In this document: positions 19,688 to 27,263 of the stretch, piece by piece
Numbering within the stretch: the first letter of the stretch is position 1
How the letters are laid out: each line of letters opens with the position of its first letter
NCBI GenBank assembly: GCA_965650895.1
Contig: CBFGQN010000001.1
Location: forward strand, 1 to 31,305
DNA length: 31,305 nucleotides
Direction of reading: 5' to 3'
Origin: an uncultured Ignavibacteria bacterium
GTDB taxonomy: Bacteria > Bacteroidota > Ignavibacteria > OLB7
Program-made: the position numbers and the translations under genes
The notes under the pieces: generated by a model
The model's database searches: none
Seen by the model: the letters and a program-made list of their open reading frames with translations, nothing else
Told to the model about the DNA's origin: nothing

Positions 19688-21022
19688 ATGCCCTCTGCTC
19701 CTTTTTTTTCATCCGCCTCGGTCTTCACCGTCGATCGCGACGGGACCGTCCACACAGGTCAGCGGAACAGCGGACCGAACGATCAATCGTATGATCTTTC
19801 CGTCATCGAATTCCTCGACGACGGATCGTTTGCCCGACCGGAGCAACTCGACAGGACTGCTTCAGCGATTACAAAAGCGCGAGGTGACAATCCGAACGGA
19901 GCGATTGTCCTCCTCTTCATTCACGGATGGCATCACAACGCCGCGTGGGATACGGAGAGCGATTCGGGGGATACGCACTTCCGCTCGTTCCGCGAAATCC
20001 TCCTCCACCTGACGCTGAGAGAAGCCGAGCGCTACCTGCCGAACGCATCGGGACGGCGCGTCATCGGCGTCTACGTAGGCTGGAGCGGAGTCACCGAGGG
20101 GATGATCGGCAGGATGGGACCGTTGAAAAACCTGAGTTTCTGGGATCGGTACGGGACGGCGGAGAAGATCGGCGGAAAGGACCCGTTGCGCCGGACGCTT
20201 CAGACGATCGTCGCCGCAGCCAAGGATCCGCTGGAAGGTCAGCGTTCCGACGTGGAATCCCCGCTGATCCTGATCGGACACTCGATGGGTGCGCTGATGC
20301 TTCAGTCGGCGTTCCTGTCGTTGCTGAAAGCCGAAGGCCAGCCTCTTCTCCGTCCGCAGGCTCCCCTCAGGGACCGTGGCGTCACGGTCAAACGGAGCGG
20401 TGTATCGTATTCGTTTCCGGATGTCCTGATCGCCCTGAACTCCGCCGCCGACTCACGCATTGCCCGGGAAATCCTTCAGGAGCTTGAGGCGCAGAAATTC
20501 AGCAAAACCGTCACGGCCGGACGGTATCACTACTCTCCGCCGATGCTGATCTCGGCCACCTCCGAGGCCGACAGCGCAACCGGCTTCGTCTGGCGACTTG
20601 CGCAGGGACTCTATTACAGCCGCAGGACCGACGGTCACGATCAGGACCTGTATACCCACGTATTCAAACAAAACGGTGAGCCCTGTTCCTGTCCAGCTGC
20701 AGGCATAATGGATTTCGGACAGGACTGGCATTGCCTGCGCCCCCCCTATCCTCCCGATATGCCGACTCCGGAGTTTGCCCTCGATCTTCCCGCCGTCAAA
20801 CGGACCCCTCATGGAGAATACCATCACGAGCGCTACGTGCTTCGCTCCGTTGACAACCCCGCGACACCTCACCTTGCATGGATTTTTCAGGTGCCCGATG
20901 ACGTCATTGCCGACCACAACGACATCTTCAACTTCAAATCCAGTCTCCTCATCCTGGCGTTGATCCAGATATCCGGGGCAACGATGAGTCTGGCTGAAGA
21001 CTGGGAAGGGAATTTCGAGTAG
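19688..21022 (+). CDS. Alpha/beta-hydrolase fold protein (putative esterase/lipase)
   Basis: LLFIHGWHHNA oxyanion region, nucleophile elbow GHSMG, candidate acid in SEADSAT and His in ADHNDIF. Confidence 0.75.
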   Translation: MPSAPFFSSASVFTVDRDGTVHTGQRNSGPNDQSYDLSVIEFLDDGSFARPEQLDRTASAITKARGDNPNGAIVLLFIHGWHHNAAWDTESDSGDTHFRSFREILLHLTLREAERYLPNASGRRVIGVYVGWSGVTEGMIGRMGPLKNLSFWDRYGTAEKIGGKDPLRRTLQTIVAAAKDPLEGQRSDVESPLILIGHSMGALMLQSAFLSLLKAEGQPLLRPQAPLRDRGVTVKRSGVSYSFPDVLIALNSAADSRIAREILQELEAQKFSKTVTAGRYHYSPPMLISATSEADSATGFVWRLAQGLYYSRRTDGHDQDLYTHVFKQNGEPCSCPAAGIMDFGQDWHCLRPPYPPDMPTPEFALDLPAVKRTPHGEYHHERYVLRSVDNPATPHLAWIFQVPDDVIADHNDIFNFKSSLLILALIQISGATMSLAEDWEGNFE

Positions 21023-21081
21023 GAGCCTGCTTGCAGCAGGCTTCAAACCGCGCAGAACCGAACCGGTTCGGATCGGCGATT

Positions 21082-21690
21082 TCATTCGCGTACGACAACA
21101 AACCGCTCCGGAAAGATCGGCTCTTTCGGCCTCCACTTCGGAAAGACCGGATCATCCGGAGTTCTCTTCCACTGCGTGGCCATTCGATGGTATCGCTCCA
21201 CCCATTCCGGATACTCGTAATCGGCCGAGAGCGTCGAGTCGTTCACCAGTCGGAAGCGTGCGAAGGGTTCTCCGATCAGCGGATGATTCTTCAGACCGAA
21301 AGTCGTATCAAGCATCGCATCAAAAACGCAATCCATGTTCCGGTCCCAGTACATCACGATCTCGTCGCCGACGATGGAGACCGGATAGCAATAGGCGCAC
21401 TGTCCGTGGTATTCATAGTTGAGGGAATCGTCGATGAAGACCGGAGAAGACCAGGTTCCTTCGCCGTTCCAGCGGGTGTATGCCGTATCGTGGATAATTT
21501 GTTCAAGAGGGCTCCGTACGGTTCGGGGCGCGGTCGGCGCACGTTCGGTCAGGGAGTCGGATTGATCGGATAGGCTGGTGTCGGGGAAGTTCCCGGCCGA
21601 TTCTTCCGTTCGAGAACAACCAGGAATAATGAGTAAAACGAACATTGCCCTGAGCAGCAAGTCGGTTGTTCTGTGGAGATGATTGTTCAT
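21082..21690 (-). CDS. Hypothetical lipoprotein
   Basis: 202 aa. Hydrophobic signal ending IIPGC, then an S/D-rich linker. No family recognised. Confidence 0.6.
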   Translation of the reverse strand: MNNHLHRTTDLLLRAMFVLLIIPGCSRTEESAGNFPDTSLSDQSDSLTERAPTAPRTVRSPLEQIIHDTAYTRWNGEGTWSSPVFIDDSLNYEYHGQCAYCYPVSIVGDEIVMYWDRNMDCVFDAMLDTTFGLKNHPLIGEPFARFRLVNDSTLSADYEYPEWVERYHRMATQWKRTPDDPVFPKWRPKEPIFPERFVVVRE

Positions 21691-21900
21691 GAACGTTCTT
21701 CCATTTTATTTCCGCGCTCAATGTTCAACCGGATGCCTCTTCACTTCGAGACAGCTCGGGAAGCCTTGTCATCCTCCGGGGCTCCCGGCGTCGGCTGAAG
21801 ACCGACGGCTACCGACTCCCGACCATTCAACTAATCCCGATCCGCAGTCAGCTATCAGCTATGAGCCTTCAGCATGAATGCCTTCATCTTTCCCTGACTT

Positions 21901-21938
21901 CCAACTCTACAAACTCCCAACTCTATGAACTCTCAACT
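21901..21938. repeat. Short imperfect tandem repeat (16-nt unit, about 2.4 copies)
   Basis: ccaactctacaaactc / ccaactctatgaactc / tcaact. Confidence 0.6.
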
Positions 21939-21980
21939 AAAAAAAGGGGAAGACCGGCCCCACCGATCTCCCCCTTTTTT
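21939..21980 (-). terminator. Rho-independent terminator of nrdJ, possibly bidirectional
   Basis: Minus strand GGGGGAGATCGG-tgggg-CCGGTCTTCCCC (12-bp stem, 2 GU pairs) followed by T7. A T run is also present on +. Confidence 0.85.
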
Positions 21981-22008
21981 CATTTTGCCTTTTGAGTTTT
22001 GCATTCAC

Positions 22009-25000
22009 CTACGAGCATCCGCTCGTCGTCCCGCACTCCTCGCAGACATGGCAGGCTCCGTTCTGCTTGACCCGCATCGAGCCGCAGTTGCCGCACTGTT
22101 CGCCGGTATAGCCCTGGGCCCTTGCGGTGGCTACTTTTTCCTCGGCGTTGCTGCCGGTTTTTGTTGCCTGTGCGGTGCGGACCGAGCCGCCGGCTCCGTT
22201 TGTCCCATTCGTTCCACCGTTGGTCTCCCGCTTGCGGTACTGCTGGCGTTCCCACAGTTCACGTCCTGGTGAAAGCCGGGCGGCACCGGAATCTTCATCC
22301 CCCGGCCCGTACTCGATCCCCTCGGTCTCATCCACCGCCTTGATGTGGATGAAGTCCTCACGCCCCAGATACTCGTAGCCGATCGCCCGGAAGACGTAGT
22401 CGACGATCGACGTGGCGTTCTTGATCGCCTCGTGTCCCTGCACCGGCCCCGACGGTTCGAAGCGGGTGAAGGTGAAGGTGTCGACCATCTTCTCCAGCGG
22501 CATACCGTACTGCAACGCCTTCGAGGCGAGCACCGCAAAGCAGTTGAGCAATCCCTTGAAGCTTGCCCCCTCCTTGTACATGTCGATGAAGATCTCTCCC
22601 AGCTTGCCGTCTTCGTATTCTCCGGTCCGCAGGAAGACCTTGTGTCCGCCGACGGTCGCCTCGCGGACGAAGCCGTGGCGCCTCTTCGGCAGACGACGAC
22701 GGTCGGCCCGGTGATAGACCTTCTCGACGATCTTCTCCTGCACCTGCTGCGGCCCGACCTGCTCGTTGAAGTCCTGTCCGCTTCCGACCATGTGGGAGGC
22801 GTCAACATCGATGTCACGGAGCGTGACCTGCTCGACGAGTTCGGACTCGGCCGAGACGTTCAGCGGCTGCGAGAGCTTCGAGCCGTCGCGGTAGAGGGCG
22901 ATCGCCTTCAGCATCAGCTTCCACGACTCCAGGTAGACCTTCTCGACATCCTCCAGCGTCGCCTCGCGGGGCATGTTGATCGTCTTGGAGATCGCCCCGG
23001 AAATAAAGGGCTGGGCCGCGGCCATCATCTTCACGTGCCCCATGTAGGCGATATACCGCTTGCCGATCTTGCCGCACCTGTTTGCACAGTCGAAGATCGG
23101 CAGATGCTCCTCCTTCAGATACGGCGCCCCCTCGATCGTCATCGTGCCGCAGACGTAGCGGTTGGCCTCCTCGATCTCCTCTTTGTTGAAGCCGAGTTCG
23201 GCCAGCACGTTGAGCGACGGGTCGTTGACCTGCTCGTCGGTGAAACCGATCGACTTCAGGAACTCGTCGCCGAGCGAATAGCGGTTGAAGGCAAAGGTGA
23301 TGTCGAAGGCGGTCTCCAGTCCGGATTCCACCGCATCGACCTTCTCGTCGGTAAATCCTTTTGCCTTCAGCGAGGCCCGGTTGATGTGCGGACATCCCTT
23401 CAGCGAGGCATAGCCCTTGATATAGGAGGAGATGTCGGCGATCTCCGCATCGCTGTAGCCCAGCCGGTTCAGTGCCTTCGGCACCGACTGGTTGACGATC
23501 TTGAAGTAGCCGCCGCCGGCCAGCTTCTTGAACTTCACCAGCGCGAAGTCCGGCTCGATACCGGTCGTGTCGCAGTCCATGATCAGCGAGATCGTCCCGG
23601 TCGGCGCGATCACCGTCACCTGCGCGTTCCGGTAGCCGTGCTCCTCACCGAGCGCGACGGCCCGGTCCCAGCACTCCTTCGCCGCAGCCGAAAGGTTTGC
23701 CGGACAGAGGGAGTGGTCGATGCCGACCGGCGTCACGGTCAGTCCTTCGTACTCACCCTCCGGAGCGTTATATGCGGCGCGGCGGTGGTTCCGCATCACG
23801 CGAAGCATATCCTTTGCGTTCCGCTTGTACCGGTTAAAGGCTCCGAGCCGACCGGCCATCTCGGCACTGGTCGCGTAGGATTCGCCGGTCATCACCGCAG
23901 TGATCGCTCCGGCCCACGCCCGCCCCTCGTCCGAATCGTACGGGATACCGGCACGCATCAGAACCGTGCCGAGATTTGCATAGCCGAGACCGAGCGTCCG
24001 GGTGTCGAAGCTGATTTGCGCAATTTCTCTTGAAGGGAATTGGGCCATCAGAACGGAGATTTCCAGAACGATTGTCCAGATACGAGTAGCATGTTTATAG
24101 CTTTCGACATCGAATATTCCGGTTTCATCATCGTAGAAATGACCCAGGTTCAGTGATGCCAGATTACACGCAGAATCATCTATAAAAAGGTACTCTGAGC
24201 ACGGATTGCTTCCGTTGATTCTCCCTTCCTTCGGACTGGTGTGCCACTCGTTGATCGTCGTGTCGAACTGCAGACCCGGGTCGGCGCAGCTCCAGGCGGC
24301 GTAGTTGATCTTCTCCCAGAGATAGCGGGCCTTCACCGTCTTCGCCCTCTCCTCGCTCGTCCGCCACATCAGGTGCCAGTCTGCGTCCTCGGCTACCGCT
24401 TTCATGAAGTCGTTTGAAATCCGGACGGAGTTGTTGGAGTTCTGTCCGCTGACGGTATTGTAGGCCTCCCCCTCGTAGTTCAGGTCGTACTCGTTGAAGT
24501 CGATCTTCTCCATCCCCTGATCGACCAGCGAAAGGACGCGGACGATATAGTTGAAGGGGATGCCGCGGCTGAGGGCCCGCTGCACCAGACTGTGAAGTTC
24601 GGACGAGGGATCGGAATAATCGGTCCCCTGCTCCCGTCCCACCTCTGCGATCTCCGCCAGGAAGGCCCGGCAGATGCGCGAACCGGCCACCAGCGCAGCC
24701 ACCTTCTGCTCCTCGACCATCTTCCAGTCGATGAACTTCTCGATGTCCGGATGATCGATGTTCAGGATCACCATCTTCGCGGCCCGCCGCGTGGTTCCGC
24801 CGGATTTCACGGCACCGGCTGCCCGGTCGTTCACCTTCAGGAAGCTCATCAATCCGGAGGAGACGCCGCCGCCGGAGAGGGGCTCACCTTCGCCCCGGAG
24901 TTCGGAGAAGTTGCTTCCGGTTCCGGAGCCGTACTTGAAGATGCGGGCCTCGCGGGTGACCAGATCGAAGATGCCCCCGTCGTTTACGAGGTCGTCGCTG

Positions 25001-26769
25001 ACCGACTGAATGAAGCAGTTATGGACAACAACTCCATTTGCAGCGAAACGGGAGGTCGCAGTCTGGATATCGTAGACCGTTTCTTCTCCCACATAATCAA
25101 TGGAGATCACCGTTTCCTCAGATGTCAGTCCCTTGTTCTTTCCGGAAACGGTCCGGTTGAGCTTCCTGAGCTTTTCTTTCTTCTCTTCCGAAACGAAACC
25201 GATCGAGTCCTCAAATTTGAGACGTTCGGAAGACCAGGAGATACTGACATGGTAAAGAGGATGTCTGTTCTCGCGTGAATCACGACCAACCGCAACGTTC
25301 GCATAGATGCCGAGACTTAACAGAAGGATTTGCACACCGTGAGCCAGCTCCTCGGATATTGTCGAGAGCACAACATCGCCGCTGTTGCGACCGTCGGTAT
25401 TGCGGATTCGGACACACCCGTCGGCCTGAAACAGTGATCTGAGGAAGGCAATCTTTTCCTCCCGTCTTCCCTTGAATATTCTTTCAGGCACCTTCGCTAC
25501 AAGCGAGCCGGCATCCAGCTCATACTGTTCAACAAAGTCGTCCACCACTTTCGAATCGAGTTTGACTATGCGATAGAGATCGTGGACATTTTTACGGGTT
25601 ACGACTTTGTACTTACCGAAGATTGATGTGAACAGATCCGTGACGAAGGCATATTCATCCTCGTTAACCGTGATCGCTCCAAACAGTGTGGTCTTGTTAT
25701 TGCGATTGTACTTTCCATAATAGCCGTCTCCGACAATCCATCCCGCCAACGCAGCCGACTTCACATCAATATCGGTGGTCTCCGAAGATTCTTCATCGAA
25801 GCCCGAATCAATCCCCTCACGATCAAGAAGGGTGTGCAGATCGGATATTACGGAGGTCATCTCTCCATGTCGGGATGCAACCGCATGCAGGTCTTCGCCG
25901 ATCGATATGGATTCTCCGTATGGAAGGGCTGCCTGCAGTACTTTTTGTCCGAGTATGGTCTCAAGTTCATGCCAGCCGTATTGCCCCCCATCCTTTTCTC
26001 TTCTGTCGGCACTCCACACCAGATGGTCGCCGGTAAACTCGATAAAGTTTCCGTTCTTCAGAGTGGCTCGCCAGATCCTCCGGACACCATTATTTTTCAC
26101 TGCCTGTACGGGAACAAAGTCATTCCCGTCAAACACCCGAAGATCGGTACGGTTCCCCTCTACGATCTCACGTATCTCCAGAATACCCTGGTCGGTGAAA
26201 AGCCGTGTGTTTTCACGAGCGCACGCATGGGGTTGCGGATGCGTATAGGCATCCTTCGAGCGGGTCAGCTTGCCGGTCTCCGGATCGACGTAGTAGTGTC
26301 CCTGCGCCGGACCCTCGATGCCGTAAGCCCAGTGGAGTCCGGTATTGAACCACTGCGGCGAGTTCGGGGCGGCCATCTGGTTCAGGAGCGTGTAGGCGAT
26401 CTCGTCGTAGAAGGCCTGCGCATCCTCGGGCGAATCGAAGTAGCCGTGCTCCTCCCCCCAGTGGCGCCAGCATCCGGCCAGACGGTGGACCACCTGCCGG
26501 GCGCTCTTCTCGGCGCCGAGAATCGGCTCACCCTGTTCGTTGAAAAGCTGATTCCCTTCGGCATCGAATTGCGGCACCCCGGCCTTGCGGAAATATTTCT
26601 GCGCCAGGATGTCGGTGGCCATCTGCGACCAGCGACTCGGGACCTCGATATCGTGCATCTCGAAAACGACCGATCCGTCCGGATTGCGCAGCACCGAGCT
26701 GCGGAGCGAATAGTCGAACATATCGTAGACGTTCTTCCCGGCGGTCGTGTAGAGACGTGAAATTTTCAT
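22009..26769 (-). CDS. nrdJ: Vitamin B12-dependent (class II) ribonucleotide reductase, intein-containing precursor (1586 aa; about 1184 aa after splicing)
   Basis: Start MKISRLYT at 26769. Motifs: APNSPQWFNTG, PQPHA/CFIQSV, KSGGTTRRAAKM, GSNPCSEY (N, C, E catalytic), CNLASLN, TVIAPTGTI, AAAQPFISGAISKTIN. C-terminal TSCPD-like domain and Zn-ribbon CxxC...CxxC...GCS. Confidence 0.97.
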   Translation of the reverse strand: MKISRLYTTAGKNVYDMFDYSLRSSVLRNPDGSVVFEMHDIEVPSRWSQMATDILAQKYFRKAGVPQFDAEGNQLFNEQGEPILGAEKSARQVVHRLAGCWRHWGEEHGYFDSPEDAQAFYDEIAYTLLNQMAAPNSPQWFNTGLHWAYGIEGPAQGHYYVDPETGKLTRSKDAYTHPQPHACARENTRLFTDQGILEIREIVEGNRTDLRVFDGNDFVPVQAVKNNGVRRIWRATLKNGNFIEFTGDHLVWSADRREKDGGQYGWHELETILGQKVLQAALPYGESISIGEDLHAVASRHGEMTSVISDLHTLLDREGIDSGFDEESSETTDIDVKSAALAGWIVGDGYYGKYNRNNKTTLFGAITVNEDEYAFVTDLFTSIFGKYKVVTRKNVHDLYRIVKLDSKVVDDFVEQYELDAGSLVAKVPERIFKGRREEKIAFLRSLFQADGCVRIRNTDGRNSGDVVLSTISEELAHGVQILLLSLGIYANVAVGRDSRENRHPLYHVSISWSSERLKFEDSIGFVSEEKKEKLRKLNRTVSGKNKGLTSEETVISIDYVGEETVYDIQTATSRFAANGVVVHNCFIQSVSDDLVNDGGIFDLVTREARIFKYGSGTGSNFSELRGEGEPLSGGGVSSGLMSFLKVNDRAAGAVKSGGTTRRAAKMVILNIDHPDIEKFIDWKMVEEQKVAALVAGSRICRAFLAEIAEVGREQGTDYSDPSSELHSLVQRALSRGIPFNYIVRVLSLVDQGMEKIDFNEYDLNYEGEAYNTVSGQNSNNSVRISNDFMKAVAEDADWHLMWRTSEERAKTVKARYLWEKINYAAWSCADPGLQFDTTINEWHTSPKEGRINGSNPCSEYLFIDDSACNLASLNLGHFYDDETGIFDVESYKHATRIWTIVLEISVLMAQFPSREIAQISFDTRTLGLGYANLGTVLMRAGIPYDSDEGRAWAGAITAVMTGESYATSAEMAGRLGAFNRYKRNAKDMLRVMRNHRRAAYNAPEGEYEGLTVTPVGIDHSLCPANLSAAAKECWDRAVALGEEHGYRNAQVTVIAPTGTISLIMDCDTTGIEPDFALVKFKKLAGGGYFKIVNQSVPKALNRLGYSDAEIADISSYIKGYASLKGCPHINRASLKAKGFTDEKVDAVESGLETAFDITFAFNRYSLGDEFLKSIGFTDEQVNDPSLNVLAELGFNKEEIEEANRYVCGTMTIEGAPYLKEEHLPIFDCANRCGKIGKRYIAYMGHVKMMAAAQPFISGAISKTINMPREATLEDVEKVYLESWKLMLKAIALYRDGSKLSQPLNVSAESELVEQVTLRDIDVDASHMVGSGQDFNEQVGPQQVQEKIVEKVYHRADRRRLPKRRHGFVREATVGGHKVFLRTGEYEDGKLGEIFIDMYKEGASFKGLLNCFAVLASKALQYGMPLEKMVDTFTFTRFEPSGPVQGHEAIKNATSIVDYVFRAIGYEYLGREDFIHIKAVDETEGIEYGPGDEDSGAARLSPGRELWERQQYRKRETNGGTNGTNGAGGSVRTAQATKTGSNAEEKVATARAQGYTGEQCGNCGSMRVKQNGACHVCEECGTTSGCS
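25018..26223 (-). mobile_element. Intein with LAGLIDADG homing endonuclease (402 aa) in nrdJ
   Basis: Block A CARENTRLFT (Cys1), block B FTGDH, blocks C/E LAGWIVGDG and FLRSLFQADG, block H LAHGVQILLLSLGI, block F VYDIQT, block G VVHN followed by the +1 Cys. Removal restores PQPHACFIQSV. Lower GC (24/60 at 25561-25620). Confidence 0.96.
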
Positions 26770-27263
26770 GGAGTTTTCCCTGTTAGAATTAGAGTATATG
26801 ATTGAGAATTCCCACACGACGCCCTGAACCAAGCGCGCAGTCCGAATGAGGCTTTTGCACGGGCAGACCCCCGGCGTGCGCTTCGATCAGCGAGACGTGT
26901 GGAATGCGATGTTATCCTGAACGGCGACCCGCCGCGGCGAGCCGTTGGAAGACGGGAAGGAGGGCACGGCGACAACGATGGATTCGCAGAAGATGCGGAT
27001 GTGAATAGTCCTTCGATGTAGTGTTGAAAAGATATGCCATGGTGCTTTGTCCCGTTTTAGAAGCGGGCGAAAGATACGGGATCGCAGAGGGGGAAGTAAA
27101 GGGAAATCTCATGTGCAATAACAGCTCCAGAACGGTCCGATTCCCCTCACTGTTTCAACCTATCCCTCCCCCTCTCCTCCCCTTCTCTCTTCCTCCACGA
27201 TTCTCTATCTTTACGGTTCTTTCATCGAAAACATCTCTGATTTTATCCATACTTCACGAAATC

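Follow-up and report, generated by a model that had tools for sequence, protein, structure and literature searches.

The window analysed here is the first 31,305 nucleotides of contig CBFGQN010000001.1 from an uncultured Ignavibacteria bacterium (assembly GCA_965650895.1). On its minus strand lies nrdJ, the gene for a class II ribonucleotide reductase (RNR), and the catalytic core of this gene holds a short patch of codons with a G+C content at third positions (GC3) far below that of the codons around it. Inside the patch are two intein homing sites, both vacant here and both occupied in relatives. The features that matter are given below, all on the minus strand, a slash marking each intein junction.

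22009 to 26832, minus strand: nrdJ open frame, encoding a class II, adenosylcobalamin-dependent RNR; conserved start MKISRLY at 26769
25018 to 26223, minus strand: resident LAGLIDADG intein of 402 amino acids, junction PHA/C...HN/CFIQ, GC3 0.55
24238 to 24270, minus strand: conserved block QFDTTINEWHT, adjoining the patch on its upstream side; the probable zone of the upstream crossover
24016 to 24228, minus strand: low-GC3 patch of 71 codons (maximum-likelihood bounds), with a patchy continuation possible to about 23950
24199 to 24204, minus strand: vacant NP/C homing site, junction between 24202 and 24201, the +1 residue being the thiyl-radical Cys
24172 to 24189, minus strand: three substituted residues between the homing sites, M>L (24189), L>I (24183) and T>S (24174)
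24166 to 24171, minus strand: vacant A/C homing site in DDSA/CNLAS, junction between 24169 and 24168
23965 to 24000, minus strand: conserved block RTLGLGYANLGT, on the downstream side of the patch; the probable zone of the downstream crossover or of patchy repair

The open reading frame (ORF) encodes a NrdJ product of 1607 amino acids. Both the RNR barrel domain (Pfam Ribonuc_red_lgC, PF02867, E = 3.8e-130) and the class II N-terminal domain (Ribonuc_red_2_N, PF08471, E = 4.1e-41) are present, and TSCPD was also matched. The thiyl-radical Cys of the GSNPCSE motif is encoded by TGC at 24201-24199; with this motif intact and the frame open, the enzyme is predicted to be catalytically competent. 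It is the only RNR found in the source genome, a metagenome bin of 744 contigs that is 93% complete, with 57.7% GC and a mean GC3 of 0.75: PF02867 matches this nrdJ alone, and a class III RNR (PF13597) was not found in the bin. The metagenome runs that hold the nrdJ sequence come from rhizosphere, soil and air.

The first-pass annotation of this DNA had described a sharply bounded patch of foreign codons over the catalytic site, citing a hand count in which 40 of 70 codons at 24222-24013 end in A or T, as against 2 of 40 at 24360-24241 just upstream. Both counts were reproduced exactly; further downstream, within 24012-23761, such codons number 6/20, 4/20, 4/20 and 6/20. It had also proposed that GC3 be scanned along nrdJ. 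When the 1184 codons of coding sequence outside the intein were scanned for change points without supervision, the low segment was recovered at 24228-24016, where GC3 is 0.42, compared with 0.84 in the remaining extein (Fisher p = 5e-14). The log-likelihood ratio (LLR) of this segment was 28.5, whereas 500 permutations gave a mean of 5.6 and a maximum of 12.6. The description of the edges was correct for the upstream one, which is sharp and falls between 24243 and 24226, but not for the downstream one, which is graded to about 23950, GC3 rising stepwise, from 0.60 to 0.65 and 0.80, across the conserved block there.

Such composition is rare in the genome. Across 60-codon windows the mean GC3 is 0.75 with a standard deviation (sd) of 0.08, and only 0.26% of windows have a GC3 of 0.45 or less. 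No other internal GC3 dip in the genome is so sharply flanked (0.40, with 0.88 and 0.75 on either side). In an LLR ranking of about 1250 long ORFs the patch takes second or third place, and several of the others look like spurious frames. Another strong dip, with a GC3 of 0.33 against 0.76 and an LLR of 27.7, covers codons 103-173 of a 1295-codon ORF on the minus strand of contig C198; the ORF encodes a large protein of unknown family, and the segment is rich in Gly, Thr and Ser.

A dip of this kind might be produced by assembly, if a bubble in the metagenome graph had been resolved along the path of another organism. The fragmented state of the bin is in favour of such an error, as is the elevated depth over 24132-24295, where other organisms share a conserved block. 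However, an independent contig of 5278 bp in the European Nucleotide Archive (ENA) matches the window over 20895-26139 and carries an identical patch, its three single-nucleotide polymorphisms all lying elsewhere. Logan contigs from four runs in three studies also cover the patch. One of them (X6, record 20; 24078-24439) bridges the upstream edge, others (X5, records 9 and 10; X4, record 3) run through the patch and its downstream edge with zero differences, and an 892-bp contig from an air metagenome (23662-24553) spans the entire patch and both edges with 31 differences, which makes it the sequence of a strain about 3.5% different. The patch is identical among contigs from studies P1 and P2. 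Runs holding words of the patch belong to the same three studies as runs holding words of its flanks, and a run-index search with the patch alone found no sequencing run with the patch but without its flanks (rows with only 2 of 20 patch words, X24-X26, were not counted). The first-pass annotation had asked that a chimeric assembly be excluded; since independent assemblies and runs join both edges, the patch is a real allele, and an artefact of assembly is so improbable that we give it no further weight.

Relatives do not share the dip, which disposes of an ancestral origin, another doubt raised at first pass. In three members of the same genus (G001, G002 and G003, hereafter the congeners) nrdJ has a GC3 of about 0.6 and no dip at the position of the patch. 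Among 203 other nrdJ genes, GC3 in the rest of the gene minus GC3 in the patch region has a mean of -0.013 (sd 0.049) and a maximum of 0.16; the value here is 0.42. With an extein GC3 of 0.84 against that of the congeners, this species has moved strongly toward G/C-ending codons within its genus, and the changes in its nrdJ run the same way, with 94 AT>GC to 24 GC>AT.

Those changes were polarised at sites where all three congeners agree, and the ratio just given is that outside the patch. Inside it the direction is reversed, with 13 changes GC>AT and 2 AT>GC (p = 7e-7). Change is also more frequent there: the lineage change rate is 11.5% in the patch as against 6.3%, and private changes reach their gene-wide maximum in it, at 20 per 71 codons (mean 10.8, sd 2.8). 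Over the first 40 codons of the patch, nucleotide identity to the congeners falls to 0.70 from about 0.83 elsewhere, and third-position identity to 0.35 from 0.55-0.6. The proportion of synonymous sites that differ from the congeners (pS) is 0.80-0.91 in the patch and 0.61-0.64 elsewhere; nonsynonymous divergence (dN) from G001 and G003 is 0.062-0.074 and 0.043, respectively. Private amino acid changes likewise have their gene maximum here, at 7 per 71 codons (6/71 against a background of 2.3%, p = 0.006). Three replacements, M>L, L>I and T>S, fall within six codons, at positions where 14, 15 and 15 of 15 family members share the replaced residue, and the motif now reads CSEY-L-F-I-DD-S-AC. 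The catalytic core of an essential enzyme has thus tolerated changes at positions conserved across the family. In both composition and substitutions, then, the patch has the marks of an imported segment.

Might the same sequence have evolved in place, through a mutational hotspot or because A/T-ending codons were locally favoured, for a translational pause or an RNA element, with no import at all? The protein is still genus-like, the topology tests described below accept either tree, and a donor was not found in the collections searched, all of which would fit. However, the dip is missing from the congeners and from the 203 other nrdJ genes, Rfam has no match in the patch (its sole weak match, E = 0.13, lies upstream at 24346-24393), and drift elsewhere in the lineage runs strongly from AT to GC. 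Several codon changes need two substitutions each (ATG to CTT, TTG to ATA and ACG to TCT), and the changes comprise 12 transitions and 6 transversions on both strands, unlike the product of a single mutagenic burst. The pattern looks rather like that of long separate evolution, and we regard evolution in place as very unlikely.

The location of the patch brings inteins into the argument. The A/C junction lies 11 codons downstream of NP/C; both fall inside 24228-24016, and neither is occupied in the window, the second assembly or the run contigs. In congener G001, the match to nrdJ is split at the catalytic Cys by an insert of 370 amino acids, a LAGLIDADG intein placed exactly at NP/C (CVTADTFV...GIAIHN/CSEY, GC3 0.46), with Pfam matches to Intein_splicing (PF14890, E = 9e-16) and LAGLIDADG_3 (PF14528, E = 2e-23). 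Judged by its Cys1, terminal HN, +1 Cys and a nested LAGLIDADG endonuclease domain, this is a predicted homing intein. In G016, a member of the same family, an intein of 401 amino acids occupies the other site, at DDTA/C...IAHN/CNLAS.

The element of G001 is no isolated case. Of 400 other genomes sampled from the phylum, 24 have relatives that are 52-72% identical to it, and in the 20 loci examined (L217-L236), which belong to other families of the phylum, NP/C is again the insertion point. The first-pass statement that the NPC motif of RNRs serves as an intein insertion site is borne out, by G001, within this very genus. Because most of these relatives have a GC3 of about 0.6, which is 0.2-0.3 below that of their host flanks (0.8-0.9), the NP/C inteins are taken to be mobile and, like the patch, AT-shifted, and their composition points to a recent spread from a lower-GC pool. 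A modest signal of the co-conversion kind can be seen in G001 itself. When it is compared with its near-identical, intein-free sister G003 (dS, the synonymous divergence, about 0.46), the two genes differ at 14 and 10 nucleotides per 20 codons just downstream of the intein, in the region homologous to window positions 24179-24060 (L032 against L003), whereas the gene mean is 5.0 differences per 20 codons (sd 2.7). These 40 codons, with two to three times the average divergence, are a likely co-conversion tract.

From these results we infer that the patch is a gene-conversion tract from an unsampled lower-GC congener and most likely a footprint of intein traffic, a reading to which, taken as a whole, we give a probability of about 0.55. 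Its parts are not equally firm. Import by recombination is very likely: the first-pass suggestion of a recombination footprint from a lower-GC donor is the best-supported account of the patch, because the substitutions run against the drift of the lineage and private changes peak here over the whole gene. The link to inteins is probable but circumstantial, and we hold the involvement of an intein to be only somewhat better than an even bet. It follows chiefly from the fact that the tract covers two sites that are empty here and occupied in relatives, NP/C in G001 and A/C in G016. As no element is present in the allele that bears the tract, what we propose is a footprint left after loss or curing.

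The donor would have been unsampled and of lower GC, either from within the same genus-level clade or sister to it. A tract of about 213 bp, perhaps patchy to about 290 bp, would have been copied from it into nrdJ, with crossovers in the two flanking conserved blocks, QFDTTINEWHT and RTLGLGYANLGT. An intein might have homed in together with the extein flanks of its donor and later been lost; alternatively, a resident intein might have been cured by recombination with an intein-free allele. Either route would leave foreign flanks around a vacant site. The import probably came after most of the lineage's shift to higher GC, since the patch has only 2 AT>GC changes where about 6.6 would be expected.

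Plain short-patch homologous recombination with a lower-GC congener, by natural transformation for example and with no part played by inteins, is the main rival. On this account, the location would be explained by blocks around the catalytic site that are conserved enough to allow crossovers between diverged genomes. Two highly conserved blocks do bound the patch. The upstream one is identical to G003 at 31 of 33 nucleotides, and even contigs of unrelated GC-rich organisms align to it, diverging at 24238/24239; the amino acids of the downstream one are common to all seven genomes compared, bar one L/I position. Furthermore, all three sampled congeners have a lower GC3, of about 0.6, the patch protein is genus-like, and no intein-bearing allele has a flank that matches the patch. 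Against this rival, a tract of 213 nucleotides placed at random in the 3.55-kb extein would, by our estimate, cover NP/C only about 6% of the time, and relatives in the genus and family actively use both homing sites. The patch is also so exceptional among the long ORFs of the genome, as their most sharply flanked GC3 dip, that low-GC imports seem too uncommon to make a match with a homing site likely, and a chance coincidence would therefore be improbable. We consider intein-independent recombination possible but distinctly less probable than a footprint of intein traffic.

Several results weigh against such a footprint, or against import altogether. First, conserved blocks favour homing sites and ordinary recombination alike, so that the co-location of patch and sites is weaker evidence than it appears. 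Second, the first-pass annotation had suggested comparing the flanks of relatives with an intein at NPC, and while such relatives do exist, in G001 and 20 further genomes, the C-extein flanks of these 21 occupied alleles are unlike the patch, with nucleotide identities of 0.40-0.67, and of 0.74 for G001. Third, G016 shows no raised divergence around its A/C intein when compared with G012 and G014; co-conversion is thus not obligatory. Fourth, separate phylogenies of the patch and the rest of the gene, as proposed at first pass, gave no clear incongruence. The terminal branch of the window is 2.8 times longer in the patch tree (0.093) than in that of the rest of the gene (0.034), but the approximately unbiased (AU) test, with p values of 0.33-0.67 for both the rest-of-gene topology and the alternative, does not reject congruence, which the first-pass annotation had named as a ground for refuting its reading. 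In the patch tree the genus is held together at 99% bootstrap, the window falling outside its congeners at only 69% support, and the patch protein retains residues specific to the genus (KEGRING, LNLGHFY and VESYKHATRIWT).

Finally, no donor was found in any collection searched, the best match other than the allele itself being from its own genus, G003, at 88% amino acid and 77-78% nucleotide identity. With the patch as query, the best non-self match among 5.8 billion proteins of 883-2813 amino acids was 84%, and the best among fragments of 126-403 amino acids was 78%. Peptide-pattern scans reached 69% in viral contigs, 80% in JGI metagenomes and 88%, again G003, in a set with one genome per species. 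At the DNA level the best match in all 21 genomes of the order was 78%, and blastn against all 216 fetched loci (of which L045 and L003 are the same place) gave no donor; nor did tblastn against phages (best 61%) or plasmids (best 75%). The genome itself holds no second copy of the patch.

A selected replacement of the active-site segment deserves separate consideration. The imported protein or DNA would on this explanation have been advantageous, either by resisting endonucleases at NP/C and A/C or by altering the enzyme. The three replaced residues, each conserved in 14 or 15 of 15 family members, lie within six codons exactly between the two junctions. Of the 39 nucleotides around NP/C, 10 in the window are unlike those of G003, where the site is empty, and of G001, once its flanks are rejoined; between G001 and G003 themselves the count is only 3. 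The window also departs from the CSEY[MI]-[FY]-L found in every one of the 21 alleles with an intein, and the patch shows no differences among the P1 and P2 contigs. On the other hand, 213 bp would far exceed the target of a LAGLIDADG endonuclease, given the target lengths known for these enzymes. Most empty alleles also have M and L, which leaves little weight to the contrast with the occupied ones, and the same L-F-I-D-D-S motif occurs in unrelated lineages. On balance, we find selection for the replacement itself improbable.

A related idea, unlikely though somewhat less so, is that the vacant double homing site was immunised by import of a diverged, endonuclease-resistant allele that kept the enzyme working. 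The donor might then have been a fast-evolving, lower-GC copy on a phage or other mobile element of this genus, a source that would account for a protein at once genus-like and over-diverged. With regard to the motif, CSEYLFIDD[ST][AS]C was also seen in an unrelated GC-rich metagenome lineage (L125 / P0059) and in nrdJ genes on two viral contigs (L040 and L044), whose patch regions are only 51-78% identical to that of the window. Motif frequencies among the fetched alleles are biased, one fetch pattern having been CSEYLFID, and were not used as population frequencies.

The concept of a footprint left by a homing element is already familiar, and the nrdJ patch would be a further case of it. A close precedent for a footprint around an emptied site is the homing group I intron in cox1 of angiosperm mitochondria, which leaves co-conversion tracts and is rarely lost, the tract then being fully retained (Sanchez-Puerta et al. 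2011, PMC3192709). In both systems a short donor-type stretch beside a homing site is read as the footprint of endonuclease-driven gene conversion, and a tract free of any element is taken as a sign of past presence. In contrast to cox1, the candidate element here is an intein in a bacterial chromosome, the tract of 213 bp extends to both sides of the site, and it was found by codon composition and matches no element-bearing allele that we found. Inteins of the haloarchaeal MCM gene offer a second parallel, with flank co-conversion, empty sites resistant to invasion and frequent loss inferred (PMC10643990). There, too, a conserved gene has a pair of neighbouring homing sites, inteins take flanking extein codons along with them, and changes of residue at empty sites block invasion, a likeness that may extend to nrdJ. 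However, the co-conversion demonstrated in MCM affects a single codon or a few, and experiments there put resistance to the test, whereas the nrdJ tract has 71 codons and is known from its sequence.

Homing elements are modelled as passing through a cycle of invasion, fixation, decay, loss and re-invasion (Goddard and Burt 1999; Gogarten and Hilario 2006; both cited in PMC2814812). At nrdJ, stages that this model predicts can be seen side by side: a site vacant here and occupied in a congener, a resident intein elsewhere in the same gene, and a shortened copy of that intein type in G012. The model is silent on a compositional scar, and the step of loss is in nrdJ something that we infer. A further likeness is to the NP/C inteins of class II RNRs in G001 and its relatives, whose insertion point corresponds to the vacant junction between 24202 and 24201 and whose +1 nucleophile is the thiyl-radical Cys. 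Unlike those alleles, the window has nothing inserted at this point, and none of the 21 occupied alleles examined has the same flanks.

Footprints at empty homing sites belong to the scarce evidence for loss and resistance as stages in the life cycle of homing elements. These stages are well argued for organellar introns and poorly documented for bacterial inteins; in a full-text literature search, only five papers named both 'intein' and 'co-conversion tract', and every one of them concerned introns. The present locus comes with a natural comparison set, namely congener G001 with its intein, a sister of G001 that is almost identical but lacks the intein (G003), and G016, from the same family, whose intein fills the neighbouring site. 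The endonucleases of G001 and G016 could be tested on the recoded site.

The resident intein of nrdJ, at PHA/C, was also considered as the source of the patch and was rejected. It ends about 0.8 kb upstream, the roughly 775 bp of extein between the two have host-like codons (GC3 0.75-0.95), and G012 and G016, which carry the same intein, match the patch at only about 72%. In Pfam, its LAGLIDADG_3 domain scores above the cut-off and its Intein_splicing domain below it (31.6 bits against 35.8). The copy of this intein in G012 (L034) is much shorter and is without the stretch bearing the first LAGLIDADG motif, which is kept in G016 and in the window; this looks like decay of the endonuclease. In G016 (L033), nrdJ has four inteins in a frame of 2433 amino acids, among them those at PHA/C and DDTA/C and a third at APTG/C.

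Two other observations concern nrdJ and inteins more widely. Three proteins of 150-260 amino acids that contain the active-site region of the RNR barrel (P0123, P0126 and P0131), on contigs of 24-330 kb, may represent split, frameshifted or interrupted nrdJ genes. In addition, the source genome (G000) has a second LAGLIDADG intein, inside dnaB on contig C85 (L237:3-2171), in a frame that runs off the start of the contig and that matches DnaB_C (E = 6e-106), Intein_splicing and LAGLIDADG_3 in Pfam.

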